A stretch of DNA of 64,000 nt from an uncultured Bacteroidales bacterium (GTDB taxonomy: Bacteria; Bacteroidota; Bacteroidia; Bacteroidales; FEN-979): assembly GCA_903845055.1 (NCBI GenBank), contig CAIMWF010000147.1:12182-76181 (forward strand), written 5' to 3'. The notes beneath the pieces were generated by a model, which was given only the letters and a program-made list of their open reading frames with translations, was not told the origin of the DNA and made no database searches. Position numbers and translations under genes: made by a program. Below, in pieces: positions 37,809 to 63,660 of the stretch (position 1 is its first letter; every line of letters starts with the position of its first letter).

Positions 37809-37855
37809 ATAATTATTTCACTTCAAAAATAACGGAAAAATCAGTTAACAATACA

Positions 37856-38260
37856 TCAATTGTTATTTTTTAACAGTAAATTTTCAATCTCCTCTTTCAG
37901 CCGTTCCGAGCGGATTCCCTTGTCGAGAAAGCGATCAGCCTTGATCCATTTCCTGTTATTTTCATCGTTGATATCAAAACTGATTCCTGTTTCGGCAGTA
38001 ACACCGGTTGCAATGATGATCGGAACACCCGGATATTTCTTTTTCATTTTATAGCAAAGGATAAATCCACTGTCCTCGTTCTCCATCATCAGGTCGAGGA
38101 TGGCCAGGTCGGGCCTGGTCTTTTCCAGGATTTCCTCAGCTTCCTTCTGGCTTTCGGCAACAATCGTCTTAAAACCGAATTTCTGCACTTTCGCCTGGAG
38201 CTGGAAAAGATAATCCTGGTCATCATCAACGATCAGGATGGTGTAATTTGCTGGTTTCAT
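37856..38260 (-). CDS. Single-domain response regulator
   Basis: IVDDD, LDLMME; no output domain. Confidence 0.88.
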   Translation of the reverse strand: MKPANYTILIVDDDQDYLFQLQAKVQKFGFKTIVAESQKEAEEILEKTRPDLAILDLMMENEDSGFILCYKMKKKYPGVPIIIATGVTAETGISFDINDENNRKWIKADRFLDKGIRSERLKEEIENLLLKNNN

Positions 38261-38337
38261 ATTTTGATTTTATTTCTCAAAGTCAAGCTAAATTCTGCGG
38301 ATTGCCTGCGGCCCGGTTCTGCCATATCACTTCCATC

Positions 38338-40323: not shown

Positions 40324-42041
40324 CTGTTTTCTGTTGATGTTCTTATTACATGGAGCAACTCCATATTCTGTCCGCTGCCCGGCTTCGCCAGGAACTTTTC
40401 ATACAGGTCGAGGATGACAGGGTTCTTGTGCGATACTTTGATGATCTCTTCATCATCCACATCATAAAGTGCTTTCATCCTTGCCTTGAGGTTTTTTTCA
40501 TCGCCGCCGCGCATCTGTCCTCCGCCGTTGATGCATCCGTAAGGGCATGCCATCACCTCGATGATCTGGTAGTCGGCCCGTCCGGCTTCAACTTCATCCA
40601 ATAACGTCTTTGCACTGGCAAGCCCGTTAACGGCTGCTACGCTGAAAAAGGTTTTACCGGCCTTTACCCTGGCCTCCTTTTTGTTTTTTAATCCACGTAA
40701 TTCGTTGATTTTTATTGGATTCAATTCCTGTCCTGTTATCATAAAATGAACCGTACGCATCAGGGCTTCCAGGTGTCCCCCGGAGATGCCGAACAGGTTA
40801 CCGGCCGAACTCCGCATGCTGAAAGCCGTGTCGGATGGTTCTGGCTCGAGGCTGTTCATTTCAATGCCCAGTAGACGTATCATTTTGACCAGTTCCCTGG
40901 TGGTGAGAACGGCGTCAACGTTGCAGGTGATGCCGTCTTTCATCCGGTCCGACGCAGCTTCATGCTTTTTGGCAGTGCAGGGCATCACCGACACCACGAA
41001 AACGTTTTCAGGTTTCTGTCCCGCCGAGGTGGAGATGTAATTTTTTATGAGCCGGCCCATGATCTGCTGCGGTGAATTTGCAGTCGACAGGTTCGGCAGC
41101 CAGTGGGGCCTTGATTCCTCCACGTATCTAACCCAACCCGGGCAGCAGGAGGTGAGCATTGGCAGGTTTTCATGTTTGTTCAGCCTGCTGACAAATTCTG
41201 ATGCCTCTTCCATAATCGCCAGGTCGGCAGCCATGGAAACATCAAAGACCTGCTTGAACCCCAGTTTTTTCAATGCTGATCGCAAGAGGTTCAGGATGTC
41301 CTTGCTCGCTTTGATGTTGAATGCCTCAGCAACAGAACCGGGGATGGTCGGTGAAAACTGGATTACCGGGAACAGTTCAGGATTGCTCAGGGCATCAAGC
41401 ACCACCTGGAAGTTTGATTTTTCGGTCAGGGCGGCAGTTGGGCATACCATGATGCACTGTCCGCATTTGATGCAGCCCTGCATGTTCAGTCCTTTATTGT
41501 ATGAGGTCCCGATCCTGCTTTCGCTGCCGCGGCCCACCACGTCGATTGCAAAAGCCCCGATCACCTCGTCGCAGACCCGGATACAGCGGCCGCACAGGAC
41601 ACATTTTGCCGGATCACGCACGATGGAACTGCACGCCTTGTCGATCTGTACCTGGCGACGTTTGCCATGGTATTTACGTTCACGGATATTCATCCCGGCG
41701 GCAAGTTCCTGCAATTCACAGCTCCCGTTCCTTTCGCAATAGTGACAATCGTCGGGATGACCGGCAAGCAGCAATTCCACGAGGATCTTCCTGGCTTTCA
41801 GTACCCTGGGTGAATGGGTCTTGATTTTCATCCACTCCGTCACAAAGTGCGAACAGGATGGCACAAGTTCGGAGATCCCATCAACTTCAACGACACACAT
41901 CCGGCACCCGCCCGAGGGTGAAAAGCCATTCATGTAACAGAGGGTGGGCACCTGGATACCAATCCTGTCGAGCACATTTTTGATGGTTTCTCCACGCTTG
42001 GCCGATACCTCCTGGTCGTTAATCTCAATATTGAATTGCAT
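40320..42041 (-). CDS. hydA: [FeFe]-hydrogenase group A catalytic subunit (divergent HydA)
   Basis: N-terminal 2Fe-2S, His-ligated and 2x4Fe-4S clusters; TSCCPGW, MPCTAKKHE, EVMACPYGCINGGG. Confidence 0.9.
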   Translation of the reverse strand: MQFNIEINDQEVSAKRGETIKNVLDRIGIQVPTLCYMNGFSPSGGCRMCVVEVDGISELVPSCSHFVTEWMKIKTHSPRVLKARKILVELLLAGHPDDCHYCERNGSCELQELAAGMNIRERKYHGKRRQVQIDKACSSIVRDPAKCVLCGRCIRVCDEVIGAFAIDVVGRGSESRIGTSYNKGLNMQGCIKCGQCIMVCPTAALTEKSNFQVVLDALSNPELFPVIQFSPTIPGSVAEAFNIKASKDILNLLRSALKKLGFKQVFDVSMAADLAIMEEASEFVSRLNKHENLPMLTSCCPGWVRYVEESRPHWLPNLSTANSPQQIMGRLIKNYISTSAGQKPENVFVVSVMPCTAKKHEAASDRMKDGITCNVDAVLTTRELVKMIRLLGIEMNSLEPEPSDTAFSMRSSAGNLFGISGGHLEALMRTVHFMITGQELNPIKINELRGLKNKKEARVKAGKTFFSVAAVNGLASAKTLLDEVEAGRADYQIIEVMACPYGCINGGGQMRGGDEKNLKARMKALYDVDDEEIIKVSHKNPVILDLYEKFLAKPGSGQNMELLHVIRTSTENR

Positions 42042-42049
42042 GGCAGCCG

Positions 42050-43999
42050 TTATTTGAAGTAAATAGCGTTGAACTTACAACAGTCAAAACAGATACCGCA
42101 GCCGGTACATTTTGACTCCACGATGAAATGGGGTAATTTTACACTCCCGATGATGGCATTTTCAGGACATTTTTTCTTGCAGATGTTGCAACCGTTGCAG
42201 GCCTCGACATCGATAAAAAATGTCCGCAGGTCATGACAAATCCCCGCCTTGCATTTCCTGTCAAAAATATGTTCCTCGTATTCCTCCCTGAACCATTTCA
42301 GAGATGACAATACCGGGTTCGGGGCATTTCGTCCAAGACCGCAAAGGGAGGTATCGCGGATCACTTCGGCAAGGCTCTCTAGTTCCACAACACCCTTGAA
42401 CCGTTCAAGGGTTTCATGCGAGCTGTCTTCCCTCGGCCGGCGCGTGATCTCTTCGAGAATGTTCCGCATCCGCCTGGTCCCCTCCCGGCAGGGAATGCAT
42501 TTGCCGCAGCTCTCTTTCTGGAGGAACTCCATGAAATATTTCGACAGGTTAACCATGCAGGTATCCTCATCGAGGATGATGATGCCTCCCAGCCCCAGTG
42601 ACGATCCTAGCGCCCGGAGTGATTCATAACCGACGGGGGTATTAAGGTCCTGCACCGGGAGGCAAACGCCGGAAGGCCCGCCGAACTGGACGGCCTTCAG
42701 CTGTTTGTTGCCCTTGGTTCCTCCTGCAATGGAAACGACGATATCGGAAATGGTGGTCCCCATCTCAATTTCGATAAAACCCGTATGGGTCGCCTTGCCG
42801 GCGATGCTGAATATTTTTGTTCCCCGGCTTTCCCTGATCCCGATGGATTTGAACCAGCCGGGGCCGTTTTCCATGATGGAGGGAATGTTGGCCAGTGTTT
42901 CGATGTTGTTGACGATGGTGGGGTGACCGAACAAACCTTTCTCGGCAGGGAAGGGCGGTTTCGACTGCGGGATGCCGCGTTTGCCTTCAATACTGGCAAT
43001 CAGCGCGGTTTCCTCCCCGCATACAAACGCCCCGGCCCCCTGCCGGATATGGATATGCAGGTTGAATCCACTGTTGAAAATGTTTTCACCGACAAATCCG
43101 TATTCTTTTGCCTGTGAAAGCGCCTTCTCGAGAATGACCAGCGACTGCTCGTAATCGGACCTCACGTAAATGTAGGCGTTGCTCGCTCCTATGGCATAGG
43201 CCGAGATGGCAATTCCTTCGATGACCCTGTGGGGGTCGCCTTCAATAATGGCACGGTTCATGAATGCGCCCGGGTCACTTTCATCGGCATTACAGATGAG
43301 GTATTTCTGATCACTGCCGGTACCGAGGGCAAGCGCCCACTTCTTCCCGGTGGGATAACCTCCGCCTCCGCGCCCCCGGAGTTCACTCTGGTCCACAATC
43401 TCGCAAACTTTGTCGGACGTATAATTCAGGACGGTTTTATAGAGGGACCTATAACCACCGTGGGCAATATAGTCGTCAACCGACCAGGGTGAAATGATCC
43501 CCGAATTGCGGAGAATATTCCTGTGTTGCAACGCGAAAAACGGCATTTGCAGGACATAGGGCATGTTGGCCCAGTCTTCGTGACCGGGATGTTTATATTG
43601 ACCCAGCACCGTCTCTTCTAACAGCAGGTGATGGAATACAGCGTCAAGCAATCCCTCCACGCGGTCTTCAGTTGCGTGATGGAATGATATCCGCGATTTG
43701 CCAGGCAACTGTACGTCGAGCAGCGGTTCCATTGAACACAGGCCGATGCAGCCCACATGGATAATTTCGGCATCCAGGTTGTTTTTTTCCAGGTATTGTT
43801 CAACGGCTGTCAGGGTGTTCCCCGCCCCTGCGATCAGGCCGCAAGTGCCCGTTCCGATATAGATAACCGGGTGGATGACCTTGTCGCGTTTTACCAGGGC
43901 AAGCCGGTCCGAATTGGCTTTATCGAAGATGGTGGAATAACTTTTCAGGATTTTTTCGACCAGAAATTCTTTATTTTCCGGGGTGTTCAGAATGGCCAT
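42050..43999 (-). CDS. hydB: NuoF-like diaphorase subunit HydB with N-terminal thioredoxin-like 2Fe-2S domain and C-terminal 2x4Fe-4S
   Basis: RGRGGGGYPTG, NADESDPGAFMNR, GAFVCGEE, ESCGKCIPCREG. Confidence 0.9.
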   Translation of the reverse strand: MAILNTPENKEFLVEKILKSYSTIFDKANSDRLALVKRDKVIHPVIYIGTGTCGLIAGAGNTLTAVEQYLEKNNLDAEIIHVGCIGLCSMEPLLDVQLPGKSRISFHHATEDRVEGLLDAVFHHLLLEETVLGQYKHPGHEDWANMPYVLQMPFFALQHRNILRNSGIISPWSVDDYIAHGGYRSLYKTVLNYTSDKVCEIVDQSELRGRGGGGYPTGKKWALALGTGSDQKYLICNADESDPGAFMNRAIIEGDPHRVIEGIAISAYAIGASNAYIYVRSDYEQSLVILEKALSQAKEYGFVGENIFNSGFNLHIHIRQGAGAFVCGEETALIASIEGKRGIPQSKPPFPAEKGLFGHPTIVNNIETLANIPSIMENGPGWFKSIGIRESRGTKIFSIAGKATHTGFIEIEMGTTISDIVVSIAGGTKGNKQLKAVQFGGPSGVCLPVQDLNTPVGYESLRALGSSLGLGGIIILDEDTCMVNLSKYFMEFLQKESCGKCIPCREGTRRMRNILEEITRRPREDSSHETLERFKGVVELESLAEVIRDTSLCGLGRNAPNPVLSSLKWFREEYEEHIFDRKCKAGICHDLRTFFIDVEACNGCNICKKKCPENAIIGSVKLPHFIVESKCTGCGICFDCCKFNAIYFK

Positions 44000-44000
44000 C

Positions 44001-44465
44001 TTATTCTGTTTTTTCTTTGAGAGAATGGATGATACGGGTTAATGCTTCCGGGGTAACATGAGGGTGGTAGACGTCGTTGATGCGGATTACCGGTGCTGAT
44101 TCACAGGCTCCCATGCAATTCACCAGCTCCAGGCTGTACCTTCGGTCCCTGCTGGTTGTTCCGGCTTTCAGTTTCAACTGCTTTTCAAGTTCACCCAGGT
44201 ATGACAGCGAACCATGCAGGTGGCAGGCGGTGCCCCGGCACAGCTGGACATGATACAGGCCATGGGGCCTGAACCTGAACTGGTCGTAAAATGCCGCGAC
44301 ACTGAAGACCTTGTTGACCGGCATGTTCAGGGTGCGGCCGACTTCGGCGATCAGGTCATCTGTCAGGTAACCGTTGACCTGTTGTACCTCCTGCAGGATG
44401 GGCAGCAGCGAATCTTTCCTGTTCGCAGGGTACCGGACAAGAATTTTTTCAAGAATTTCGTTCAT
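44001..44465 (-). CDS. hydC: NuoE-like 2Fe-2S subunit HydC
   Basis: LLPILQEVQ, CRGTACH, CMGAC. ATG 44465 preferred. Confidence 0.9.
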   Translation of the reverse strand: MNEILEKILVRYPANRKDSLLPILQEVQQVNGYLTDDLIAEVGRTLNMPVNKVFSVAAFYDQFRFRPHGLYHVQLCRGTACHLHGSLSYLGELEKQLKLKAGTTSRDRRYSLELVNCMGACESAPVIRINDVYHPHVTPEALTRIIHSLKEKTE

Positions 44466-44533
44466 AAGACAAAACAAAATAGAGTATCTGCTTTACAAAA
44501 ATAACGTTTTAATCTTAATAATGACATTTTTAA

Positions 44534-44568
44534 TTGTGAAATATTTAGCAATGTGAATAATTAAACAA
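44534..44568. promoter_or_regulatory. Tandem Rex-like operator pair
   Basis: TTGTGAAATATTTAGCAA (44534-44551) and ATGTGAATAATTAAACAA (44551-44568) in a divergent promoter region. Confidence 0.75.
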
Positions 44569-44657
44569 ATATTTTTAGGGACAAAATGCATATTATTTTT
44601 CGATCAATGAACCGGATTACCGCAGATATTCCTAATTTTGACATGAACAACAACACT

Positions 44658-46526
44658 ATGCCCGACGAACCTCTCTTTCATATTTCGCACAAAACCTGTG
44701 TCAGGTGTTATTCCTGTGTCAGGATATGCCCCGTGAAGGCCATCAGGGTTGATGTGAACACCGAATTTCCGTCGATCCTTCCCGAACGCTGCATCGGCTG
44801 CGGAAGCTGCTACCGGGCCTGTTCACCGCATTCCATCTCCTACCGCAGTTCTTCCGGACAGACCAAGGAGCTGCTATCCTCCGGCATGCCGGTGGCCGCC
44901 ATCTGCGACCCCTCCATTTCCGGTGAGTTCCACGATATTACCGACTACCGGAAATTTGTTGAGATGATCAGGCAACTTGGCTTTTCATACGTCATTGAAG
45001 CTTCCTTTGGCGTCGACCTGGTGGCCTTGCAATACAAGGAACTTTTCGATGATTTCAGGGGGAAATACCACATCACCGCGAATTGTCCCGCGGTGGTGGC
45101 TTTTATTGAAAAATACCACCCCGAACTCATCAACAACCTGGCACCAGTGGTTTCGCCCATGGTGGCGACCGCGAAGGTGGTGCACCGGAAATTCGGGACT
45201 GACGTGAAGGTGGTGTTTATCGGGCCTTGCATCGCCTCCAAGGATGAAGCCCTCCGGTATGACGGGGATGCGAAAATTGATGCCGTGCTCACGTTCGTTG
45301 AACTGCGCGGGTTGTTTACCGAATTCAACATCCGCGAGAGCCAGGTCGAATTTTCGGAATTCGATCCGCCCCTCGGCCACAAAGGATCACTTTATCCCAT
45401 CAGCAACGGCATCCTTCAGGCGGCCGACATCAGCGAGGACCTGCTCACGGGAAGCGTCATCACCACCGAAGGCCGGAACAACATGCTCGACGCGGTCAAG
45501 GAATTTGATTCCCGCATTGAGCTGATCAGGAGGAACTTCAACATTTTTTACGATGAAGGTTGCCTCATGGGACCCGGAACATCGCCCGGCGGAGAAAAAT
45601 TCCTGCGCATGACCCTGGTTACCGATTATGCCAACAAACGCCTCATTACCCTCGACAAGGAGGCATGGGAACAGGATATGGCATCCTTCGCCGGTCTCGA
45701 TCTCGGCAGGGAATTCCAGGCCGACGACCAGCGTCTGCCGGTCCCCGGTGACGAAACCATCGAGGAAATGCTGAAAATGATGAACCGCGAAGGCCAGATG
45801 CACAACGACATCGGATGCGAGGCCTGTGGATATTCCAACTGCCGCGATCTTGCAATAGCCATCTCCCAGGGGCTGGCTACCACCGAGATGTGCCATATCT
45901 TCAGCGGTCATAACCGTCAGGAATACATCCAGACCCTGCGGACCGCCAATGAAACGCTGGCCAAAACCAAAATCGCCCTGAAGGAATCGGAAGAAAAGGC
46001 CAGGCACGAACAGGAGGCCCAGAAAGAATCCTCCGAGATCATCTCCATCATGCTTCAGAACCTGCTTTCGGGCGTGGTGATCGTGGATGAAGAACTCAGG
46101 ATCTACCAGTCAAACAAGGCCTTCATCCGGATCGTCGGTGAAGAGGCGGCCCTGATCGACGAGGTCATCCCGGGGCTGGTCGGCGCCGACCTTAAAACGT
46201 TGCTCCCGGTTCACTTTTACAAGATGTTTTCGTATGTCCTTTCGTCCGATGAACCCATTGAAAATAAAGATGTTCAGTATGAGGATAACAAGCTGGGGGT
46301 CTCCATTTTTCCCATCAGGAGCCATAAATATGTCGGGGGAATTCTCCGCGACATGTACACCCCGGAGGTCAGGAAAGAACAGATCATCACCAGGCTCACC
46401 GAGGTGGTCGACGAAAATTTCGACATGGTCCAGAAGATCGCCTACCTTTTAGGAGAAGGTGCTTCCAAGACCGAGCAGATGCTGAATTCAGTGATCAATT
46501 CGTATAAGAATCCTGGTAAGAAATGA
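44658..46526 (+). CDS. PAS-containing sensory [FeFe]-hydrogenase-like protein (HfsB/HydS, group C3-like) with degenerate H-cluster site
   Basis: 2x4Fe-4S; TANCP / PCIASKDE / IFYDEGCLMG; FeS domain, PAS, VQKIAYLLGE tail. ATG 44658 follows TAATTTTG at 44633; track gives 44586. Confidence 0.85.
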   Translation: MPDEPLFHISHKTCVRCYSCVRICPVKAIRVDVNTEFPSILPERCIGCGSCYRACSPHSISYRSSSGQTKELLSSGMPVAAICDPSISGEFHDITDYRKFVEMIRQLGFSYVIEASFGVDLVALQYKELFDDFRGKYHITANCPAVVAFIEKYHPELINNLAPVVSPMVATAKVVHRKFGTDVKVVFIGPCIASKDEALRYDGDAKIDAVLTFVELRGLFTEFNIRESQVEFSEFDPPLGHKGSLYPISNGILQAADISEDLLTGSVITTEGRNNMLDAVKEFDSRIELIRRNFNIFYDEGCLMGPGTSPGGEKFLRMTLVTDYANKRLITLDKEAWEQDMASFAGLDLGREFQADDQRLPVPGDETIEEMLKMMNREGQMHNDIGCEACGYSNCRDLAIAISQGLATTEMCHIFSGHNRQEYIQTLRTANETLAKTKIALKESEEKARHEQEAQKESSEIISIMLQNLLSGVVIVDEELRIYQSNKAFIRIVGEEAALIDEVIPGLVGADLKTLLPVHFYKMFSYVLSSDEPIENKDVQYEDNKLGVSIFPIRSHKYVGGILRDMYTPEVRKEQIITRLTEVVDENFDMVQKIAYLLGEGASKTEQMLNSVINSYKNPGKK

Positions 46527-46533
46527 TTTTTTA

Positions 46534-46822
46534 TTTCAGATTTCAAATTTCAGATATCATATTTCACATATACCAGATATAGTTAACATTAACTTTTTTT
46601 ACCACAGAGAATCGGCGGAGGATGGAGGTCACTAAAAATTCATCTGAGTTTGGAAAATTTCAATTTTCGACCTCTGTATTTTCTCCGTGCCTCTGTGTTA
46701 AAATACACTGATTGAACACCGGAGTATGATTTTTAAAATCTGCAAATAGTGCCACAAAACTTTAACCCCTATATCCAGGCTATGTTCATTAAATCGTATA
46801 TCGTATATCGTAATTCGTAAAT
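46534..46822. repeat. Intergenic repeat patch: ATTTCAG-type heptamers, an accacagag...ctctgtgtt inverted repeat (46597-46703) and ATCGTAT heptamers
   Basis: Seen directly. Confidence 0.6.
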
Positions 46823-46828
46823 TTACCT

Positions 46829-48013
46829 GTGGACGAAAAATTCTTCATCGAAGTAAACTGTCAGCAAAAATGCCACGGCGAGGCGCGGGTTTGCGGCGAT
46901 GTCTTTCTTTCCCGTCGTATCAAGGAGGAGGGCAGGATCATCATCGTGCTGTCCGACGGCATGGGGCATGGCATCAAGGCCAACATGCTCGGGATTCTCA
47001 CGGCGACCCTGGCCGTAAATTTCACCCAGGAACACAAGAGTGTCCAGAAGATCACGGAGATCATCATGAAAACGCTCCCGGTCGATAGTGTCAAGCAGAT
47101 GAACTATTCCACCTTCACCATCGTTGAAATCGACGTGGAGGGCCAGGTTTCGATCCTGGAATATGAAAATCCGAAAACGATGATCTTTCGCGGGTTGCAT
47201 CTTTTCGAGCCGGAGTGGAACTGCGTTGTACTTGAAGGTGATCGTTATGCAGGGAAGGAGGTGCTTTCAACCACCTTCAGGCCGCAGAAGGAGGACCGGA
47301 TTGTTTTCTGTTCCGACGGTGTAACCCAGTCGGGACTCGGAAGCGAACGCTTCCTGATGGGCTGGGGACCCGAAAACCTTCAGAAATTTGTCGAGGAGGC
47401 CATCCGTGAAGAAAGGGACATTTCGGCTGTAAAACTGGGCACGCGGGTCATCAACAAGGCAAACCAGAACGACAATTTTCATCCCAGCGACGACATCAGC
47501 TGCGGGGTGATCTATTTCCGTGACCCGCGAAAACTGATGATCTTCTCCGGACCCCCGCAGGACCCCGGCAATGATAAAATGTTCACGGGTTTGCTGAAGC
47601 AGTTTGAGGGAAAGAAAATTGTCTGCGGCGCCACTACCGCCGATATGCTGGCCCGGGAATGGGAGGAGGATATCACCGACAGCAGGGAGATCCTCGACCC
47701 CGAACTCCCGCCTGTTTCGCACATGAACGGTGTCGAGCTTATTACCGAAGGAATCCTGACCTTGAGCAAGGTAAGCGAACTTCTGAAGAAATACAACAAC
47801 AACCACCCGCTGGGCAGGGGCCCCGCCGACGAGATCATCCGCTACATCCTCGACAGCGATGAGATCCATTTCCTGGTCGGTACCAACATCAATGTCGCCC
47901 ACCAGGATCCCACCCTCCCGGTAGAACTTGAACTCCGGAGAACGGTCGTTCACCGCATTGCCCGCACCCTGGAGGAGAAGTTCCTGAAAGAGGTTACCAT
48001 GAAGTTCTATTAG
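46829..48013 (+). CDS. SpoIIE/PP2C-type Ser/Thr phosphatase (HfsC-like)
   Basis: CGDVF, VLSDGMGHGIKA, YSTFTI, CSDGVTQ, DDIS, VELITEGILTL. Confidence 0.9.
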   Translation: MDEKFFIEVNCQQKCHGEARVCGDVFLSRRIKEEGRIIIVLSDGMGHGIKANMLGILTATLAVNFTQEHKSVQKITEIIMKTLPVDSVKQMNYSTFTIVEIDVEGQVSILEYENPKTMIFRGLHLFEPEWNCVVLEGDRYAGKEVLSTTFRPQKEDRIVFCSDGVTQSGLGSERFLMGWGPENLQKFVEEAIREERDISAVKLGTRVINKANQNDNFHPSDDISCGVIYFRDPRKLMIFSGPPQDPGNDKMFTGLLKQFEGKKIVCGATTADMLAREWEEDITDSREILDPELPPVSHMNGVELITEGILTLSKVSELLKKYNNNHPLGRGPADEIIRYILDSDEIHFLVGTNINVAHQDPTLPVELELRRTVVHRIARTLEEKFLKEVTMKFY

Positions 48014-48077
48014 GAAAAAAGGCAATGGGCAATAGGCAACAGGCAACAGGCAATAGACATCATTGACAGGTTGTCAA

Positions 48078-48116
48078 AAAATAAGCCTGCCGGTGAAAAC
48101 CCGGCAGGCTTATTTT
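48078..48116. terminator. Bidirectional intrinsic terminator, preceded by a (GGCAAYA)x5 heptamer array at 48021-48056
   Basis: aaaataagcctgccgg-tgaaaac-ccggcaggcttatttt. Confidence 0.85.
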
Positions 48117-48138
48117 GTAAGGGACCAACCTGTTTCGA

Positions 48139-48618
48139 TCAGCCCTGGTATTCTGCAACTATATCCTTGACACCGTCGGGAGACACACGTCCGTAAACCT
48201 TTTCACCCACCAGCACCACGGGCGCCAGCCCGCAGGCACCCACGCAGCGCAGGCAGCTGAGTGAAAACTTGCCGTCGGCGGTAGTTTCGCCGACCTGGAT
48301 CTTCAGAACGCGTTTGAATTCTTCAAGCACCTTTTCGGCACCGCGCACATAGCATGCGGTACCCAGGCAGATTGAAATCGGGTGCTGTCCTTTCGGAAGC
48401 ATGGTGAAAAACGAATAAAAGGTTACCACGCCGTAAACGTGCGCCACCGAGCAATTCAATTCCTTGGCGATCACCTCCTGGATTTCCGCCGGAAGGTAAC
48501 CGAATATGCTCTGGGCCTTGTGGAGAACATTGATCAGTTCACCCTTTTCGTTGTTGAACGATTTGCATACCTCCTTCAGTTCTTCAACCTTCCTTTCTGA
48601 TAACTTTATCTTTGCCAT
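48139..48618 (-). CDS. hndA: NuoE-like subunit (HndA/HydC)
   Basis: LINVLHKAQ, CLGTACYVRG, CVGACGLAP. Confidence 0.9.
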   Translation of the reverse strand: MAKIKLSERKVEELKEVCKSFNNEKGELINVLHKAQSIFGYLPAEIQEVIAKELNCSVAHVYGVVTFYSFFTMLPKGQHPISICLGTACYVRGAEKVLEEFKRVLKIQVGETTADGKFSLSCLRCVGACGLAPVVLVGEKVYGRVSPDGVKDIVAEYQG

Positions 48619-48692
48619 AACGATAATTTAAAACTCAAAAATTAATATTCAATTCCACTCGTCATTCGTCACTCGTCACTTGTCATTATCCC

Positions 48693-50465
48693 TTATTCTT
48701 CCACAAACGTTCCCTGGCTCTTGTCAAAATAGTGGGTGTGAAGCAGGTGGTGTGACTTCTCGCCAAGGGGCTTTCCTAAAAATTCCTTGTAGAGTTCAAT
48801 GATGAACGGGTTTTCGTGAGATTTGCGGATTGGTTTTCCTTCATCTTCGCGATAGATGGCTGCAGCGCGCTGTTTGATGATCTCTGAATCGCCATGGTGG
48901 AAGGGCTGTCCGCCGCCGCCGATGCATCCGCCGGGGCAGGCCATGATTTCGATGGCATGGAACTGGCTTTTTCCGGCCTGCACATCTTCGAGGAGTTTCC
49001 GTGCATTGCCCAGTCCATGGGCAATACCGATATTGATGGGTAAACCGTCGAAGTCGATGGTTGCGTGACGGATATTCTCCAGTCCGCGCAACTCTTTGAA
49101 TTCAACGTGTTCAAGTTTTTTACCTGTGTATAGTTCGTAGGCGGTGCGGCAGGCAGCTTCGATCACCCCGCCGGTATTTGCAAATATCACGGCAGCACCT
49201 GTTGAGGCGCCGAGCGGGTTGTCAAAGTCCTCATCAGGCAGGCTGTTGAAATCAATATTGGCCGATTTGATCAGGTGGGCAAGCTCGCGGGTCGACAATG
49301 AATAGTTGACATCGGGGTCGCCGTCAACTTTGAACTCGTCGCGCTGGCATTCATATTTTTTGGCCAGGCAGGGCATGATCGAAACCACGATCATGTTCTT
49401 CCGGTCGATGCCGAGTTTTTTCCCGAAATATTCCTTGGCTATTGGCCCGAACATTTGCTGCGGCGATTTTGCCGTTGACGGAACATCCATCAGGTCGGGA
49501 AAATTGTGTTCAAAGAAATTCACCCAGCCCGGGCAGCAGCTTGTCAGGATGGGAAGTTTCACATCCTTGTCACCCTTGAGATAACGGGTAAGGCGGTCGA
49601 GTAATTCGCTTCCTTCTTCCATGATGGTCAGGTCGGCAGCAAAATCGGTGTCGAACACGTAGTTAAAGCCCAGTCGTCTGAGTGCTGCAACCATCTTACC
49701 CGTTACAAGAGTGCCTGGTGCGAGGCCAAATTCTTCTCCAAGGGCGGCGCGGACGGCAGGTGCTGTTTGGACAACAACCGTTTTCGTAGGATCTGCGAGT
49801 GAATTAATCACATTGCGCGAGTGGTCAACTTCAGTCAGGGCACCGGTAGGACAAACAGATACACATTGTCCGCAGTAAGTACAGGGAGATTTCTCGAGAT
49901 TCATTTCGAATGCCGGAGCTACCACTGCCATGAACCCTCTGTTGACGGCAGAAAGCGCACCTACCGTCTGTACTTCATTACACATCATTTCGCACCGCCT
50001 GCACATGATGCATTTGTCAACATCGCGGATGATCGCCGGTGAGGTATCTTTCCGGTATGTTGACTGTTCACCCTGGTAGGGAATTTCGCGTACGCCAAGT
50101 TGCTGTGCCATGGTCTGGAGCTCACAACAGCCCGATTTGGCACAGGTAAGACATTCGGCAGGATGATCGGAGAGAATTAACTCCAGAACAGTACGGCGCG
50201 CGTTCAAAACCCTGATAGAGTGGGTGTTCACAACCATATCCTTGGCTACATTGGTAGAACAGGCAGGAGCGAGGTTCCGCCGGCCGGCAACTTCCACCAC
50301 ACAGATGCGGCAACCGCCGGGACGGTTTTCAATGTTCATGTCTTTGAGTTGAAAGTAGCAAAGGGTAGGTATATCTATGCCAATCGTCTTGGCAGCTTTT
50401 AAAATCGTTGTATCTTTTTCGACCTCGACAGGTTTTCCGTCGATGGTCAGTTTTACCATTTCCAT
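48693..50465 (-). CDS. hndD: [FeFe]-hydrogenase group A3 catalytic subunit (HndD/HydA)
   Basis: Start MEMVKLTIDG at 50465; QTAPAVR, ADLTIMEEG, TSCCPGW, MPCLAKKYE, EIMACPGGCIGGGGQP. Confidence 0.93.
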   Translation of the reverse strand: MEMVKLTIDGKPVEVEKDTTILKAAKTIGIDIPTLCYFQLKDMNIENRPGGCRICVVEVAGRRNLAPACSTNVAKDMVVNTHSIRVLNARRTVLELILSDHPAECLTCAKSGCCELQTMAQQLGVREIPYQGEQSTYRKDTSPAIIRDVDKCIMCRRCEMMCNEVQTVGALSAVNRGFMAVVAPAFEMNLEKSPCTYCGQCVSVCPTGALTEVDHSRNVINSLADPTKTVVVQTAPAVRAALGEEFGLAPGTLVTGKMVAALRRLGFNYVFDTDFAADLTIMEEGSELLDRLTRYLKGDKDVKLPILTSCCPGWVNFFEHNFPDLMDVPSTAKSPQQMFGPIAKEYFGKKLGIDRKNMIVVSIMPCLAKKYECQRDEFKVDGDPDVNYSLSTRELAHLIKSANIDFNSLPDEDFDNPLGASTGAAVIFANTGGVIEAACRTAYELYTGKKLEHVEFKELRGLENIRHATIDFDGLPINIGIAHGLGNARKLLEDVQAGKSQFHAIEIMACPGGCIGGGGQPFHHGDSEIIKQRAAAIYREDEGKPIRKSHENPFIIELYKEFLGKPLGEKSHHLLHTHYFDKSQGTFVEE

Positions 50466-50478
50466 GTATTCCTCCTGA

Positions 50479-52272
50479 TTATTTAATAAAAATCGCGTTG
50501 AACTTACATTTCTCCATACAGGCACCGCACTTGATGCACTTATCCTGGTCGATGACGTGGGCCTGCTTGCGCTCTCCGGCAATGGCGTCGACCGGGCAGT
50601 TGCGGGCACAAAGGGTGCACCCGATACAGTTTTCAGCGTTGATGATGTATTGCATCAGCGACTTGCAGTTGCCGGCGCGGCATTTTTTGTCGCGTACGTG
50701 TTCCAGGTATTCATGGTAAAAATTATCCATGGAGGAGAGCACCGGGTTCGGCGAGGTTTGTCCAAGGCCGCACAGCGAGGTATCCTTGATAACATAGCTG
50801 AGATTCCTCAGTTTGTCTAGGTCGTCCATGACCGCATGGCCCTGCGTTACCTTTTCGAGCAGTTCGAATAAACGTTTATTGCCGATCCTGCAGGGTGAGC
50901 ATTTGCCGCACGACTCTTCCACGGTGAATTCCAGGTAGAATTTTGCCATGCCGACCATGCAGTCGTCTTCGTCCATGACAATCATCCCGCCCGATCCCAT
51001 CATGGAGCCGGCAGCGATCAGGTTGTCATAGTCGATCGGGGTATCCAGGTCTTTTTCGGTCAGCATCCCGCCCGAAGGTCCGCCGGTCTGTACCGCCTTG
51101 AATTTCCGGTCGTTTTTAATCCCGCCGCCGATTTCAAAGATCACCTCGCGCAGAGTAATTCCCATGGGTACCTCGATGAGTCCCACGTTGTTGATCTTCC
51201 CGGCGAGGGCAAATACTTTCGTTCCTTTTGATTTTGCCGTTCCGATGCTTGCAAACCAGTCGGCACCCTTGAGGATGATGGCCGGGATGTTGGCGTAAGT
51301 TTCGACATTGTTGACATTGGTCGGCTTTCCCAGAAATCCCGATTCGGATGGGAAGGGGGGTTTTACGGTTGGTTCGCCGCGGAGCCCCTCCATGGAGTGG
51401 ATCAGCGCGGTTTCCTCACCGCAAACGAATGCTCCGGCGCCATAGCGGATCTCGATATCGAAGTTGAAACCTGTTCCCAGGATGTCGTTGCCGAGCAGCC
51501 CGTATTCCCGTGCCTGTTTCATGGCGATTTTCAGCCTCTCAACAGCCAGCGGGTATTCGGCGCGGATATAGATGACGCCCTTGTCGGCCCCCGTGCAGTA
51601 GCCATTGATGGCCATGGCCTCGAGCACCGTGTGGGGATCGCCCTCCAGCACCGAGCGGTCCATGAAGGCACCGGGGTCGCCTTCGTCGGCATTGCAGACT
51701 ACATATTTCTGATCGGCTTTGACTGCACGTGTGATCTCCCATTTGAGACCGGTCGGGAAACCGCCGCCGCCGCGCCCGCGCAGACCCGATTTCTTCAGGA
51801 TCTCAATGGTCGCTTCCGGGGTTAATTCGGTCAGGACCTTGCCCAGGGCCTGGTAGCCATCACGGGCAATATATTCGTCGATATTCTCGGGGTTGATGAA
51901 CCCGCAGTTCCGCAATGCGATCCTGATCTGTTTCTTGTAGAAACCCATATGCTTGGAATCGCTTTTGTATTCCTTTGTCTCGGGATCCTGGTACAACAGC
52001 CTGTTGACACGGCGTCCCTTAATGACATGCTCCTCGAGTATCTCGGCGCAGTCTTCAGGTTTTACCTGGGTATAGAACGTGTTGTCGGGCATCATTTTTA
52101 CAATGGGCCCCTTTTCGCAAAAACCGAAACAACCGGTCTTGATCACCTGTACTTCGGTTTCCAGTCCCTTTGACCTGATAAGATCCTGAAAATTCCTCAG
52201 GATGTCGTCGCTTTTTGAGGCATGGCAACCAGTCCCGCCGCAAACAAGCATGTGATATTTTATTTGTGTCAT
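50479..52272 (-). CDS. hndC: NuoF-like subunit (HndC/HydB), bifurcating-type motifs
   Basis: NADEGDPGAFMDR, KPPFP, GGPSGG; N-terminal 2Fe-2S and C-terminal 2x4Fe-4S. Confidence 0.93.
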   Translation of the reverse strand: MTQIKYHMLVCGGTGCHASKSDDILRNFQDLIRSKGLETEVQVIKTGCFGFCEKGPIVKMMPDNTFYTQVKPEDCAEILEEHVIKGRRVNRLLYQDPETKEYKSDSKHMGFYKKQIRIALRNCGFINPENIDEYIARDGYQALGKVLTELTPEATIEILKKSGLRGRGGGGFPTGLKWEITRAVKADQKYVVCNADEGDPGAFMDRSVLEGDPHTVLEAMAINGYCTGADKGVIYIRAEYPLAVERLKIAMKQAREYGLLGNDILGTGFNFDIEIRYGAGAFVCGEETALIHSMEGLRGEPTVKPPFPSESGFLGKPTNVNNVETYANIPAIILKGADWFASIGTAKSKGTKVFALAGKINNVGLIEVPMGITLREVIFEIGGGIKNDRKFKAVQTGGPSGGMLTEKDLDTPIDYDNLIAAGSMMGSGGMIVMDEDDCMVGMAKFYLEFTVEESCGKCSPCRIGNKRLFELLEKVTQGHAVMDDLDKLRNLSYVIKDTSLCGLGQTSPNPVLSSMDNFYHEYLEHVRDKKCRAGNCKSLMQYIINAENCIGCTLCARNCPVDAIAGERKQAHVIDQDKCIKCGACMEKCKFNAIFIK

Positions 52273-52289
52273 CTGATTAATTCCGGATT

Positions 52290-52688
52290 TTATTTGTTAT
52301 CAATCGTTTCATAGTTCACCGGGATGATCCCGTCGACCAGTTCATTGTTCAGGATGTACTTGTCGATGATCTTGCTGGCCTTTTTTACATCAACATAGCC
52401 GAAGGTGATGGGTTCGTTGCCCGGTTTTGTGATCTCTACCGTAGGTTCGGCATAGCAGTATCCCATGCACCCGGTTTGTGTGACAACTGCATCGATGTTG
52501 CGTTTCGTAAATTCTTCAATGAATACTTCCATGACCTCTTTGGCCCCGGAGGCGATCCCGCAGGTGGCCATGGCTACCTTCACCTGGATGCGCTTGTCGG
52601 GGTCATTGCTTTTTTCCCGCAAGTCGATTTTGGCACGAAGACCATCCTGCATCTTCTTCAGATCAGCCAATGATTTGATTTTTTCCAT
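52290..52688 (-). CDS. hndB: Thioredoxin-like 2Fe-2S ferredoxin subunit (HndB/HydD)
   Basis: VAMATCGIASGA, TGCMGYCYAEP. Confidence 0.9.
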   Translation of the reverse strand: MEKIKSLADLKKMQDGLRAKIDLREKSNDPDKRIQVKVAMATCGIASGAKEVMEVFIEEFTKRNIDAVVTQTGCMGYCYAEPTVEITKPGNEPITFGYVDVKKASKIIDKYILNNELVDGIIPVNYETIDNK

Positions 52689-52706
52689 ATCTGTTTTGTT
52701 ATAATT

Positions 52707-53261
52707 TTATGAAGAGGTTGTTACGCCTATATCCGATAAATTTTCCTCAATCATCTCCCGCAGGTATGGGTATACCAGCGGATCGTTCAGCTGAATCCCA
52801 CCAAGGGCCTCCAGGGCCTCCTCCGTTGAAAAACGGTAATTCTTCCCGTTTTTCGTGTGTGAATAGACAAAGCCTGTTCCGGGGTTGGCAATGACGGTGA
52901 GCAACACCGCACCGGTAACGTCGCCGAGAACCGGCCGGTCAAGGTGATCCAGTATGAACCGTACGGTAACCCTGGTGCCTTTTCCTTCCTCGCTTTCGAG
53001 GGTGAAGCTGCCACCCGTGCGTTCGGCATTCTGTTTAAGCAGTGACAGACCTAAACCTACCTTGCGCGTTGTGCGGGTCGTAAAAAACGGGTCTGTTACC
53101 TTCCTGGCCATCTCTTCTGTCATGCCCTTTCCGTTGTCGGCAAATTCAAGCTGTAATGTGTTGCCGGGAGTATTTTCCACGATGTCAAGACTTACCTGGC
53201 TTGCATCCGCGCTGATCGCGTTTTGAAAAATATCCATGATATGCATCGATAAATCTTTCAC
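52707..53261 (-). CDS. Stand-alone HATPase_c protein of hydrogenase operons
   Basis: DLSMHIMDIFQNA, DNGKGM, DPFFTTRTTRKVGLGL, HLDRP.LGD. Confidence 0.85.
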   Translation of the reverse strand: MKDLSMHIMDIFQNAISADASQVSLDIVENTPGNTLQLEFADNGKGMTEEMARKVTDPFFTTRTTRKVGLGLSLLKQNAERTGGSFTLESEEGKGTRVTVRFILDHLDRPVLGDVTGAVLLTVIANPGTGFVYSHTKNGKNYRFSTEEALEALGGIQLNDPLVYPYLREMIEENLSDIGVTTSS

Positions 53262-53281
53262 GGCAAAATTACGAATTCTTA

Positions 53282-53316
53282 TTGTTATATAATTAACTTT
53301 GTTATTAAATTAACAA
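53282..53316. promoter_or_regulatory. Tandem Rex-like operator pair at an internal promoter for the hnd genes
   Basis: TTGTTATATAATTAACTT (53282-53299) and TTGTTATTAAATTAACAA (53299-53316); minus-strand TAATTTTG at 53264-53271. Confidence 0.7.
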
Positions 53317-53317
53317 A

Positions 53318-54061
53318 TTAGTTGATGATTTTTGGATTTTTCCTCCCCTTTTCAAGGATAGTTTTCCTCAATTCACCAAACCCCGGATGTTCCATTTCAA
53401 AACAGGTTACCCGTGTTCCGATCAGCGCCGGCAAATGTGCGTCGGAACTGCTGATCAATGGGATTCCCCTGAGTTCGGGATGAAGGAGAAGGAATTGTGC
53501 AGGGCTCGTCTTTGGCGAAATTTCAAGGGCATCCACCTGCAGTCCGGCCGGCATGAATCCAAGCTGACCGTAAAGGCTGAACCTGGGCTTATCGATGTGC
53601 GCGGGGATGAAAAGGCCGCCCAGGCTGTGTACCTTTGCTTCAACCTGCCCGATGCCCTCGTCCAGGGCAGAGATCAGCAGCCGTTCCTCGGTATAGACAA
53701 TATCGTTGTGTTCATCCACGGCCACCTGGTAGCCGAACCGCTTAACATCATTCCGGATATCGGGAATATGATGGTCAAGGTAGGCCTGGAAATCATCCAG
53801 TTGCTCAAGTGTTTCAAAGAACGTGAGGCAGTGAACCTCCTCTTTGGTGGTCACCTCGGCCCCCATCAGGACGGCAATGCCGGCCTTTTCGCCCAGTTTT
53901 CTGGTAACCCGGCACTGCCGGGTTGTATTGTGGTCGGTGATCCCGATGATGTCCAGCTTCATTTCCAGGGCCCTCGCCACAATCACGTCGGGACTCATCT
54001 CCAGGTCGCCGCAGGGAGAGAGAACGGTATGTATGTGAAGATCGGCCCTGAAGGTTTTCAT
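53318..54061 (-). CDS. PHP-domain phosphoesterase
   Basis: DLHIHTVLSPC, ITDHN, EEVH, PAHID, SSDAH. Confidence 0.9.
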   Translation of the reverse strand: MKTFRADLHIHTVLSPCGDLEMSPDVIVARALEMKLDIIGITDHNTTRQCRVTRKLGEKAGIAVLMGAEVTTKEEVHCLTFFETLEQLDDFQAYLDHHIPDIRNDVKRFGYQVAVDEHNDIVYTEERLLISALDEGIGQVEAKVHSLGGLFIPAHIDKPRFSLYGQLGFMPAGLQVDALEISPKTSPAQFLLLHPELRGIPLISSSDAHLPALIGTRVTCFEMEHPGFGELRKTILEKGRKNPKIIN

Positions 54062-54396
54062 TTTTTGTGCAGCAGTTTGTAGGTTTTTCCACTGATTTCA
54101 AATGCCTCTTCATGGGTGCCCAGCACGGGAATCCCTTCGATGTTGCTCTGTTCAAGCATATCCTCTTCAGGCAGGTATCCCTTGACGATGACCACCGCCG
54201 CAAGTTCTTTGAGGGAAGCGATGGCCATGACGTTTTTATGTGTCTGGAGGGTGATCCAGATGCTGCCCGCACGGGCATGTCCCATCACATCGCTCAGCAG
54301 GTCGGAGGTATATCCGCCGGTGATTTCCTGGTCAAGACCTTTGGCCCCGCCGTAAATTTCAAGTCCCAGTTTTTCCGCAAGTTGTGAAACGTTCAT
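54058..54396 (-). CDS. DRTGG-domain protein
   Basis: GGYTSDLLSDVM, WITLQTH.N..A.A. Confidence 0.85.
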   Translation of the reverse strand: MNVSQLAEKLGLEIYGGAKGLDQEITGGYTSDLLSDVMGHARAGSIWITLQTHKNVMAIASLKELAAVVIVKGYLPEEDMLEQSNIEGIPVLGTHEEAFEISGKTYKLLHKK

Positions 54397-54409
54397 TTTT
54401 ATATATTTT

Positions 54410-55816
54410 TCAATTTATCTCATTGATCTCGTCCTTCAGGCTGTTCTTATCCAGCTTGTTTTCGCTCCAGATGGACTGCATGATCCGAACCGATTCCTGC
54501 ATATCAAGTTTTTCGTTCTGTTCCAGGATCTTCTGAACAAAAATGCATTGCTTGATGGTCGCCTGGTCCTGGACCACATCCTCCGAAAGGGATTTGCAGG
54601 TAGGTGAGCCGCAGATGCCGCAGTCGACCTGTGGGAGGACCCGGTTGAGTTCATAGATCCTTTTCATCTTGATCATGGCCTCGGCAACATTGTCATCGAG
54701 TTTCATGATCGAACGCGGGTTAATTTTCTCGATGGTGATCTGTTCGGGGCTGAGGTTGATGGTGCGGGTCACCTTTTCCTCTTCACAGGATGTCTGTGCA
54801 GGATTGGCACCGCACCTTGCCGCACGTTTCCTGAGCTTGTCGGCGGTGATAAAGCGGTTTCCCGGGCACAGGATCCCGCCGGCGCAGCTTTCGTCACAGG
54901 CGCGCAATTCGAGGAAATCGATTCCGTCGATCTCTTCATTTTCAACTTTTTCGAGAAACTCCATCACATTGTTGATCTCATCGATGGCCAGGCTTCTTCC
55001 CTGGTCCATGTGATCGGCTTCTCCGTGGGTCAGGCTCCAGCAGACCGATTTCCCCGACAGTGCGGCATAAGGGTGGTTCCCTGTTTTATCCTTTTTTTGC
55101 CGGAGGATCTTGAAAACCTTGTTATACAGGTAATTCATGTTGATCACCCCGTCGATCACCGATTTTATTTCGCCGACCGGGCTTTTTACGGCGACGATTT
55201 TAGCGGCACAGGGGGTGACATAGAAAATGCCGGTTTCGGCAGGGTCGAAACCCTGTCCGGCAAGGATTTTCCTGGTGTGGAGCGCGGTGATGTCGACGGG
55301 TGCCTTCAAAAGGATGATGTTCCCGGCCAGGGTCGGGAATTTAACCTGGATGAGGCGCACGATGGCCGGGCAGAAAGGGGAGATGAGCGGTTTGACTGTT
55401 TTGTGGGCCGTAAAATATTCCTTGAACCGTTCATTCAGGAATTCAACACCCTCCTCCACTTCGAAAACATGCGTGAATCCGAGTGTGCGAACCGCCTCGA
55501 GGATTTCACAGGTACCGACACTGTCGGGGAACTGCCCGGTGAACACAGTCGGGATCAGGGCGACCCGCGTGGTGAATTTGTAGATGTCGTCAAAATCATC
55601 CTGTTCGACGATGATGGCCCCGACCGGGCACACGCGGTAGCATTCGCCGCAGTCGACACACCAGTTGGCATGCAGCTGCGCCTTGCCGTGCTGCACACGG
55701 ATGGCTTCGGTCGGACAGATATTCATGCAATGGGAACAGCCGATGCAGATATCTTCGCGGAACTTCAGGGCATGATGGAACTGGATATTTTGTTTGCTGT
55801 CCATGGGGTTATTCAT
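54410..55816 (-). CDS. Group D-like (TamHydS/M2e-type) putative sensory [FeFe]-hydrogenase
   Basis: 2x4Fe-4S; SPFCPAIVRLIQ, TPCAAK, ELRACDESCAGG; C-terminal LPQVDCGICGSPTC..C. Confidence 0.82.
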   Translation of the reverse strand: MNNPMDSKQNIQFHHALKFREDICIGCSHCMNICPTEAIRVQHGKAQLHANWCVDCGECYRVCPVGAIIVEQDDFDDIYKFTTRVALIPTVFTGQFPDSVGTCEILEAVRTLGFTHVFEVEEGVEFLNERFKEYFTAHKTVKPLISPFCPAIVRLIQVKFPTLAGNIILLKAPVDITALHTRKILAGQGFDPAETGIFYVTPCAAKIVAVKSPVGEIKSVIDGVINMNYLYNKVFKILRQKKDKTGNHPYAALSGKSVCWSLTHGEADHMDQGRSLAIDEINNVMEFLEKVENEEIDGIDFLELRACDESCAGGILCPGNRFITADKLRKRAARCGANPAQTSCEEEKVTRTINLSPEQITIEKINPRSIMKLDDNVAEAMIKMKRIYELNRVLPQVDCGICGSPTCKSLSEDVVQDQATIKQCIFVQKILEQNEKLDMQESVRIMQSIWSENKLDKNSLKDEINEIN

Positions 55817-56225
55817 GAAAGTAGTTGGTGATCACTACCGTGGTTCCTTTGCCAACTTCGCTGGTTATCTCCAACTTATCGGCGTTGCTGTTCATGTTTG
55901 AAAGCCCCATTCCTGCGCCGAATCCCATTTCCCTCACCTCCGGCGTGGCAGTTGAATAGCCGATCTCCATGGCTTTCCGGATATCGGGAATGCCGGGACC
56001 TTCATCCGCCAGGGTGATGATGATCTTGCCCGCGTCGATGTCAACCGAGATGACGCCGCTGTAGGCATGTGCGACAATGTTCACTTCCGCTTCGTACAAT
56101 GCCACCACGGTGCGCTTGATGACGCTGCCGTCGACGTTGAGTTGCTTCAACCGCTTCTTCACCTCACTGGAGGGAAACCCGGCACGTGAAAAATTACCGC
56201 CCTCCACCTTGAACTCGAAATGCAT
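55809..56225 (-). CDS. RsbT/anti-sigma-type Ser/Thr kinase
   Basis: YEAEVNIVAHA, DEGPGIPDI, GYSTA, GFGAGMGL. ATG 56225 preferred. Confidence 0.88.
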   Translation of the reverse strand: MHFEFKVEGGNFSRAGFPSSEVKKRLKQLNVDGSVIKRTVVALYEAEVNIVAHAYSGVISVDIDAGKIIITLADEGPGIPDIRKAMEIGYSTATPEVREMGFGAGMGLSNMNSNADKLEITSEVGKGTTVVITNYFHE

Positions 56226-56241
56226 TTTTCCGGGTGTTATG

Positions 56242-56589
56242 TTAATAAACGGGTTGAATGCCCGCCTCAAAAAGAATGCCGCTTGCCTTGTACATGGAAT
56301 AGGGGCTTTGTATGATGGTAATCCTGTTTTCCCTCGCCACCGTGGTCATCTCTTCGGTGACCCGCTTGTTCCTGACGAATACGACGCAGGTAATGTCGGA
56401 CATCTCCGCCGTGCGGATGGCCTGGACGTTGACCAGCCCGGTGAGCAGCAGGAGGTTGTCGGTTTTCACGGTGAGCACGTCGCTCATCAGGTCGGAGGCA
56501 AAAGCCATGTCGACAGAGCTTTCGTTGTTTTCAATACCTGTGATGACAGATCCATCGAGCAGGGCAACCACATCTTTTATTTTCATCAT
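56242..56589 (-). CDS. DRTGG-domain protein
   Basis: AFASDLMSDVL, LLTGL.N.QAIRTAEMSD, FVRNK. Confidence 0.85.
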   Translation of the reverse strand: MMKIKDVVALLDGSVITGIENNESSVDMAFASDLMSDVLTVKTDNLLLLTGLVNVQAIRTAEMSDITCVVFVRNKRVTEEMTTVARENRITIIQSPYSMYKASGILFEAGIQPVY

Positions 56590-56674
56590 GCAATCTACTT
56601 CGTTTCGGGACCTACAAAACCATGCTGAATCCGCTGCAAATTTACAAACAACGAATATTAAATCCTAACTTTAT

Positions 56675-56709
56675 ATGTTAAATAATTCACAATGTTAATA
56701 AAATAACAC
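56675..56709. promoter_or_regulatory. Tandem Rex-like operator pair
   Basis: ATGTTAAATAATTCACAA (56675-56692) and ATGTTAATAAAATAACAC (56692-56709); minus-strand TAAATTTG at 56637-56644. Confidence 0.7.
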
Positions 56710-56926
56710 AAATTTAATATTGAATGAAAGTAATATATTGAATAATAATATTTTGTACTACATTCAGTTTCTATAAATTCTTAATAATACTTCACAGTTC
56801 CAATTAAAAATGTTGAAAGTTCATGCAATATTCTTTAAGAAATACCTACCAGGAATGGCATCAGAACGATAAAGGGTTCACCCGATGGCTTTGAGCAGGA
56901 GATGGGAGGGGGGAAGGCTACCGGCT

Positions 56927-57622: not shown

Positions 57623-57707
57623 GGTTTCAAGATTCTATCCTCAAACTTCGTTATCCGGTATTCAATATTCTTTTCAGGCATCAGGCCACCGTATCCATCC
57701 CCGGATC

Positions 57708-62435: not shown

Positions 62436-62470
62436 ATCTTGTTGGTATATTTTCTTGTTAATACTTGGGA

Positions 62471-63637: not shown

Positions 63638-63660
63638 GACTGTTTCTCCTATTTTCTAAG

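Follow-up and report, generated by a model that had tools for sequence, protein, structure and literature searches.

Tandem Rex-type boxes at a fixed 17-bp period, a putative redox switch in the hydrogenase clusters of an uncultured Bacteroidales bacterium

What lies ahead of the [FeFe]-hydrogenase genes of an uncultured Bacteroidales bacterium? We examined a 64,000-nucleotide (nt) stretch of its DNA (positions 12,182 to 76,181 of contig CAIMWF010000147.1, assembly GCA_903845055.1), here called the window and numbered from its first letter. It holds three elements of 35 base pairs (bp), each made of two 18-bp boxes of the type bound by the regulator Rex; the two boxes have one base in common and thus repeat with a period of 17 bp. 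These pairs are assigned to no strand. Pair 1 (44534..44568; boxes 44534-44551 and 44551-44568) lies at a predicted -43..-77 of a leftward operon of hydrogenase, sensor and rex genes, whose -7 box TAnnTTTG (44496..44503, minus strand) predicts a start at about 44491. Pair 3 (56675..56709; boxes 56675-56692 and 56692-56709) occupies the same predicted interval, -43..-77, at the head of an accessory-gene operon in the second hydrogenase cluster (-7 box 56637..56644, minus strand; predicted start at about 56632). Pair 2 (53282..53316; boxes 53282-53299 and 53299-53316) follows directly after the stop of the PHP gene of that operon and lies at a predicted -23..-57 of an internal promoter. The TAnnTTTG of this promoter (53264..53271, minus strand) stands 2 nt ahead of the GTG of the HATPase gene, placing the predicted +1 at 53259, the third base of the GTG. 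A sigma-70-type promoter and terminator scan, uninformative for TAnnTTTG promoters, showed nothing resembling a terminator in the interval from the PHP gene to pair 2. The gap between pair and TAnnTTTG is 30 bp for pairs 1 and 3 and 10 bp for pair 2. All six boxes and the minus-strand TAnnTTTG elements are where a first-pass annotation had placed them, and its period and gaps are reproduced. Its phrase ‘three hydrogenase promoters’ is accurate in that all three pairs lie in hydrogenase clusters, and is refined here, since pairs 2 and 3 belong to one cluster, the second: pair 2 lies inside it, and pair 3 stands at the head of its accessory genes.

The genes after promoter 1 (36675..44465, minus strand) encode NuoE-like and NuoF-like proteins, [FeFe]-hydrogenase subunits, a hydrogenase-domain histidine kinase, a receiver and a receiver-kinase. 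The same gene run continues into rex (36043..36684, minus strand), the only copy found in the genome, which scores over the cut-off of the NCBIfam Rex models. On the other side of pair 1, at a distance of 64 bp, a TAnnTTTG on the plus strand (44633..44640) serves a divergent hydrogenase-domain gene (44586..46526, plus strand), whose real start is probably later than 44586. Its product lacks the catalytic TSCCP motif and is on that ground putatively of the sensor type. Promoter 3 is followed (53318..56589, minus strand) by genes for two small proteins, a kinase-like ATPase, a hydrogenase-domain Fe-S protein and the PHP protein; promoter 2 (48139..53261, minus strand) by those for the HATPase, a small protein, a NuoF-like protein, an NADH-dependent [FeFe] hydrogenase (over its NCBIfam cut-off; NADH, reduced nicotinamide adenine dinucleotide) and a NuoE-like protein. 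The three small proteins have no family match at the thresholds used; we take the two after promoter 3 to be DRTGG-like, and the one after promoter 2 is presumably HydD-like. Within 53246-53271 (minus strand), residue 6 of the HATPase is Met in 21/21 loci of the genus and in 1/6 outside it, a difference confounded by kinship. With the predicted start at the third base of the start codon and Met kept at residue 6 in the genus, the internal transcript may yield a HATPase five residues shorter, or skip it.

How well do the boxes match? The published Rex operator is an 18-bp palindrome, TTGT(G/T)AA-N4-TT(C/A)ACAA (PMC6391272, PMC2883068). Against TTGTKAA-N4-TTMACAA the two boxes of pair 1 have 1 and 2 mismatches, those of pair 2 have 3 and 1, and those of pair 3 have 1 and 3. 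In the whole 3.95-Mb genome there are 131 single boxes with at most two mismatches, and period-17 pairs in which neither box exceeds three mismatches number exactly three, namely pairs 1-3. We also compared 1508 AT-rich blocks of 120 bp with 100 dinucleotide shuffles. The real blocks held 2 pairs, the block grid having missed the third; the shuffles held none at a strict criterion (mismatch sum no greater than 4) and a mean of 0.07, with a maximum of 1, at a looser one. Single sites with at most one mismatch numbered 19 in the real blocks and averaged 0.97 in the shuffles. The pairs are thus commoner than in shuffled AT-rich DNA, the comparison on which the first-pass annotation had staked its proposal. 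The genome-wide pair count, the shuffles and the matrix controls described below lead us to reject chance pairing.

The pairs are also conserved. In the following counts our own locus is included, and the set for promoter 1 is the best 30 of 46 matches, all within the genus. At promoter 1, period 17 gives the best pair in 29/30 orthologous loci, the remaining locus being cut by a contig edge, and the gap to TAnnTTTG is 30 in 23 loci and 29 in 6. The corresponding figures are 19/27 at promoter 2 (19/21 in the genus, 0/6 outside; gap 9-10) and 21/25 at promoter 3 (18/19 in the genus, one being truncated, and 3/6 outside; gap 28-30 in 20/21). The comparison of orthologous promoters that had been suggested beforehand finds the tandem kept at all three, at promoter 2 within the genus. 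The alignments show invariant G, C and A core positions and switching K/M positions, and both boxes keep the core in all 69 aligned pair-bearing loci. A divergent TAnnTTTG is held 63-66 bp from pair 1 in 25/29 loci, and for this reason pair 1 may act on that promoter too.

Across the order, the exact tandem with free spacing (0-12) was found in 83/301 Bacteroidales genomes, against 8 for a reversed control. Roughly half of the matches (75 sites) were listed, and among these the period is 17 in 65, 21 in 6, 20 in 3 and 28 in 1. The neighbouring genes are mostly those of hydrogenase clusters, together with glutamate dehydrogenase (gdh) and rex; period 17 is held at unrelated promoters (gdh, rex and three kinds of hydrogenase gene) in many families, and the layout as such is shared by dozens of related ones. 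Is it then a general rule for Rex tandems? Strict-consensus tandems in unselected metagenomes (80 of at least 117 stretches) argue otherwise: among the matches listed, periods 20-26 dominate and only 3/81 distinct elements have period 17, all three beside a TAnnTTTG. We therefore reject a universal 17-bp rule, 78 of those 81 listed elements departing from it. The period is instead a trait of this lineage, being rare among the metagenome tandems listed and dominant order-wide. The same survey turned up 11 GC-rich contigs with a recurring strict tandem of period 23 or 25 ahead of one gene family, another lineage-specific fixed spacing. Five low-GC contigs carry arrays of many Rex-consensus boxes at periods 20-26 among unannotated, possibly phage-like genes; these arrays could be Rex decoys or origin repeats.

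Which protein binds the pairs? The Rex encoded at 36043-36684 is very probably the binder, because of the operator consensus, the neighbouring rex gene, co-occurrence and the type of regulon; the same four lines lend comparative support to the Rex-like identity proposed in the first-pass annotation. As to the first, all six boxes fit the consensus with 1-3 mismatches, with core G/C positions invariant in orthologs. As to the regulon, the pairs lie at predicted promoters of NADH-linked energy genes including rex, as expected of Rex operators; in one genome a pair stands directly before rex, and in another a pair is divergent from a rex. As to co-occurrence, Rex matches divide the 301 genomes into a close group of 143 (E no greater than 1e-50), a distant group of 59 and 99 with no match. 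The exact pair occurs in 82/143, 0/59 and 1/99 of these respectively; allowing one mismatch, 12 further close-Rex genomes gain a pair (94/143) and the distant group stays at 0/59. Several genomes whose Rex is very close lack the tandem even at one mismatch and would make useful natural controls for the contribution of the tandem.

The protein itself has both a base-reading helix and an NAD(H) site. The helix motif QVRRD is present in 30/30 of the closest Rex loci. In an alignment of the DNA-binding domain without gaps, Arg49/Arg50 fall on Arg50/Arg51 of S. agalactiae Rex, which read the two guanines (PMC8376106). The dinucleotide loop GLGNLG and the sensing Ala/Tyr residues are retained, the latter having been named for NAD+ binding in Rex (PMC8063818). 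The wing is different: Leu61-Arg62 stands here, and Leu-Arg in 30/30 closest loci, where S. agalactiae Rex has Arg62-Gly63 and Rex proteins of solved structure carry Arg-Gly or Lys-Gly. In the more distant members of the close group, 20 loci of which were compared, an aligned Leu-Arg is kept in only 3, and in one it reads Ile-Arg. The shifted wing Arg may or may not take over the minor-groove contact.

Single boxes elsewhere in the genome extend the putative regulon. A matrix built from the orthologous boxes, own loci excluded, picks 104 sites; for comparison we used 40 column-permuted controls. Predicted starts are overlapped by 21 sites (control mean 3.6, maximum 10); 13 sites, three of which belong to the pairs, lie at gap 26-31 and 6 at gap 8-14 (for each, control mean 1.2, maximum 4). 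Among 20 chosen downstream genes that we annotated, those with a box over the start are nuo, pyruvate:ferredoxin oxidoreductase (POR), glutamate dehydrogenase, decarboxylase-like genes and a third hydrogenase, and those with a single box upstream are sulfide:quinone reductase and two other oxidoreductases. The hydrogenase and POR targets fit Rex, since both are Rex targets in Caldicellulosiruptor (PMC6391272, PMC8579813). Some matrix sites precede unrelated genes and may be chance. Strong single boxes also recur at a near-constant distance upstream of repeated secreted-protein-like genes without an obvious redox role (contig C96: 3657, 4715; contig C42: 11572, 13758, 15855). The third hydrogenase cluster (60642-63943, minus strand) lacks a 17-bp tandem; it has a perfect single box just after its own TAnnTTTG and a second box 10 bp upstream, at contig positions 76361 and 76406, some 180-240 bases past the right end of the window. 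Judged by position, this is a repressing layout.

If Rex binds the pairs, in which direction does it act? In Bacteroidota promoters TAnnTTTG spans -12 to -5 (PMC9723704). The leaderless genes of this genome agree: they peak 4 nt after TAnnTTTG, with 14 cases against 1-5 at neighbouring distances. On this numbering pair 2 covers the -33 region and the spacer, whereas pairs 1 and 3 stop some 6-8 bp short of the -33 element; the centre of their proximal box falls at around -51.5 (order-wide range -49.5 to -51.5). Repression by position is thus indicated for pair 2 and ambiguous for pairs 1 and 3. The first-pass annotation had thought the latter far upstream and odd for simple repression. That objection loses force, as the two pairs abut the -33 element and, by analogy, E. 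coli FNR represses from similar positions, -50.5 (ndh, pdhR) and -53.5 (cydAB), while mostly activating from -41.5 (PMC3688515).

We propose that each 35-bp element binds two dimers of the cluster-encoded Rex at low NADH, and that this probably represses the adjacent promoter until NADH rises. At low NADH, Rex would occupy both boxes of each element. At pair 2 it would cover the -33 region and the spacer; at pairs 1 and 3 it would lie on A/T-rich DNA against the upstream side of the -33 element and keep the polymerase from its upstream contacts. At high NADH its release would turn on the NADH-dependent hydrogenases, the accessory and sensor genes, and rex itself.

The order-wide positions bear on this proposal. 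Gaps of 26-32 were counted in the 301 genomes, and the other classes in 80 pair-bearing genomes with slightly different patterns. The pair is found at gap 26-32 in 71 cases, 64 of them at 28-30; at gap 0-25 in 47 cases, 16 of them at 7-9; and, among matches downstream of the -7 box, it starts 1-2 nt after TTTG in 24/35. At gaps 33-61 there are only 7 matches and no peak one turn further upstream, and activation of the class I type from further upstream is rejected. The operons themselves do not keep to one class: in the accessory operon the gap is 7-15 in 12 loci and 26-32 in 21, and the catalytic cluster, whose pair is at gap 10 here, has it at 27-30 in 12 other loci, counts that are not frequencies because the loci compared were partly selected by the upstream pattern. 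NuoE-like genes have the pair both upstream and over the start, and in other genomes gdh genes have it over the start. Since in other lineages these operons have their pair covering the -33 region or the start, one sign, repression, is the simplest reading, and we favour it as probable over activation, which we regard as unlikely.

Several points weigh against repression by Rex. The selection of loci just mentioned is one. Another is that 49/143 close-Rex genomes have no pair even at one mismatch, and the co-occurrence of pair and Rex is itself confounded by kinship and by the hydrogenase cluster. The wing arginine is replaced in this clade, so that the solved wing geometry is not directly transferable. 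A TTG 19-20 nt before the -7 box is missing from 16/43 upstream-class loci, and promoters 1 and 3 here have no clean TTG at -33. Finally, the upstream class keeps a sharp position, a frequent feature of activator sites, and the C. bescii Rex site 45 bp upstream of the membrane hydrogenase start has been read as activating (PMC8579813).

Might Rex then act in two directions, repressing promoter 2 but activating promoters 1 and 3 from a position immediately before -33? Low NADH would then favour the sensor and accessory genes and the first hydrogenase, and high NADH the second. The sharp positioning and the weak -33 elements at promoters 1 and 3 speak for such a scheme, as do two genomes in which one pair lies at gap 28-32 from two divergent promoters, and the C. 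bescii membrane hydrogenase, for which activation has been proposed and whose transcript is lower in a rex deletion (PMC8579813, PMC6391272). On the other hand, other lineages have the pair of these same operons at plainly repressing positions; the catalytic cluster that would be repressed at gap 10 here has the upstream arrangement elsewhere; 27/43 upstream-class loci do have the TTG; and the second peak one turn upstream is missing. We retain activation, which the first-pass annotation had raised together with anti-activation, as a minority reading with a small share of our confidence, the positions of the pair in other lineages favouring repression. A more elaborate version would make this Rex a remodelled-wing clade in which two dimers bind cooperatively, the 17-bp period being obligatory, and which switches reciprocally, by NADH, between two electron-bifurcating hydrogenase systems, activating when docked against the -33 element and repressing when it overlaps the core; taken jointly, these claims are quite unlikely.

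To return to repression by two dimers, what might fix the period at 17? In the solved S. agalactiae complex a wing arginine reaches the outermost base pair of the 18-bp box (PMC8376106). In the tandem this base pair is the one common to both boxes, and a step of 17 bp, some 223 degrees of twist, puts the second dimer on roughly the opposite face. Both boxes would probably be filled at once, the wings of the two dimers meeting in one minor groove and so fixing the period. From the invariance of that period, cooperative binding of two Rex dimers is a reasonable inference; the altered wing and the rarity of period 17 hint at a contact between dimers, presumably wing to wing. Rex might instead repress through boxes that are mutually exclusive registers, or independent sites, with the period fixed by common descent and not by protein contact. 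Rex has been crystallized on 22-bp operator DNA (PMC8376106), two spans of which would overlap by 5 bp at period 17, and tandem consensus boxes elsewhere prefer periods 20-26 (78/81 listed are not 17). We nevertheless think this reading very unlikely, given that the period is held at unrelated promoters in many families and that core bases are kept in both boxes of every aligned pair-bearing locus.

The boxes might also be read by a regulator of the Crp/Fnr family or by some other protein. TGTGA-N6-TCACA shares the geometry of a CRP site, the genome has 5 HTH_Crp_2 matches over the cut-off, and relatives of one candidate occur in 77/80 pair-bearing genomes, a search that covered pair-bearing genomes and so tested co-occurrence by half. 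Those relatives, however, mostly share 30-45% identity and come in several paralogs, in contrast to the invariant helix of Rex; three pair-bearing genomes have no relative at E 1e-25. Moreover, the published Bacteroides Crp-like (BT4338) motif, wwwTATGTTnTAnAACATAwww, differs in spacing, TGT and ACA being 4 bp further apart here (PMC3878776), and we reject that site. A Crp/Fnr-type or other reader is accordingly the weaker candidate and a very unlikely one. A structured RNA is rejected as the explanation, Rfam giving 0 matches at the gathering score in positions 43000-58000.

If the proposal is right, many free-living anaerobic Bacteroidales would have a predictable redox switch for H2 metabolism. 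The tandem poses a structural question, whether two Rex dimers touch through their wings, and its natural promoters, in three positional classes, offer material on how regulators act at the Bacteroidota -33/-7 promoter. In a full-text literature search, whose reach left outside the main comparative Rex paper (Ravcheev 2012), other classic Rex papers and supplements, we found no Bacteroidales Rex regulon and no fixed 17-bp double operator.

How does the system compare with those already known? In position only, the proximal-box centre of pairs 1 and 3 resembles the repression site of E. coli FNR near -50.5 at ndh and pdhR (PMC3688515), a regulator of a different protein family working with a different sigma factor. 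With the S. agalactiae Rex-operator complex (PMC8376106; PDB 3keo family) the likeness is in the protein: the recognition arginines, P7, R13, S34, Y65 and the dinucleotide loop align without gaps. Its Ala47 is Val here and its wing Arg62-Gly63 is Leu-Arg, and for that Rex one dimer per operator was measured. The closest parallel in regulon is with the Rex proteins of Caldicellulosiruptor bescii and Thermoanaerobacterium saccharolyticum (PMC6391272, PMC8579813, PMC5886521). The 18-bp consensus is common to both, and their targets include an [FeFe] hydrogenase, POR, a sensory hydrogenase operon (hfs, predicted) and rex, with one upstream site read as activating. As far as the available text describes them, those operators are boxes that stand alone or far apart at promoters of Firmicutes; in this genome, by contrast, a rigid 17-bp tandem stands at Bacteroidota TAnnTTTG promoters, and the Rex belongs to a clade of its own whose wing is altered. 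Firmicutes are already known to control hydrogenases through Rex, and what we describe is likely a redox switch of a known type, arranged in a way particular to this lineage.

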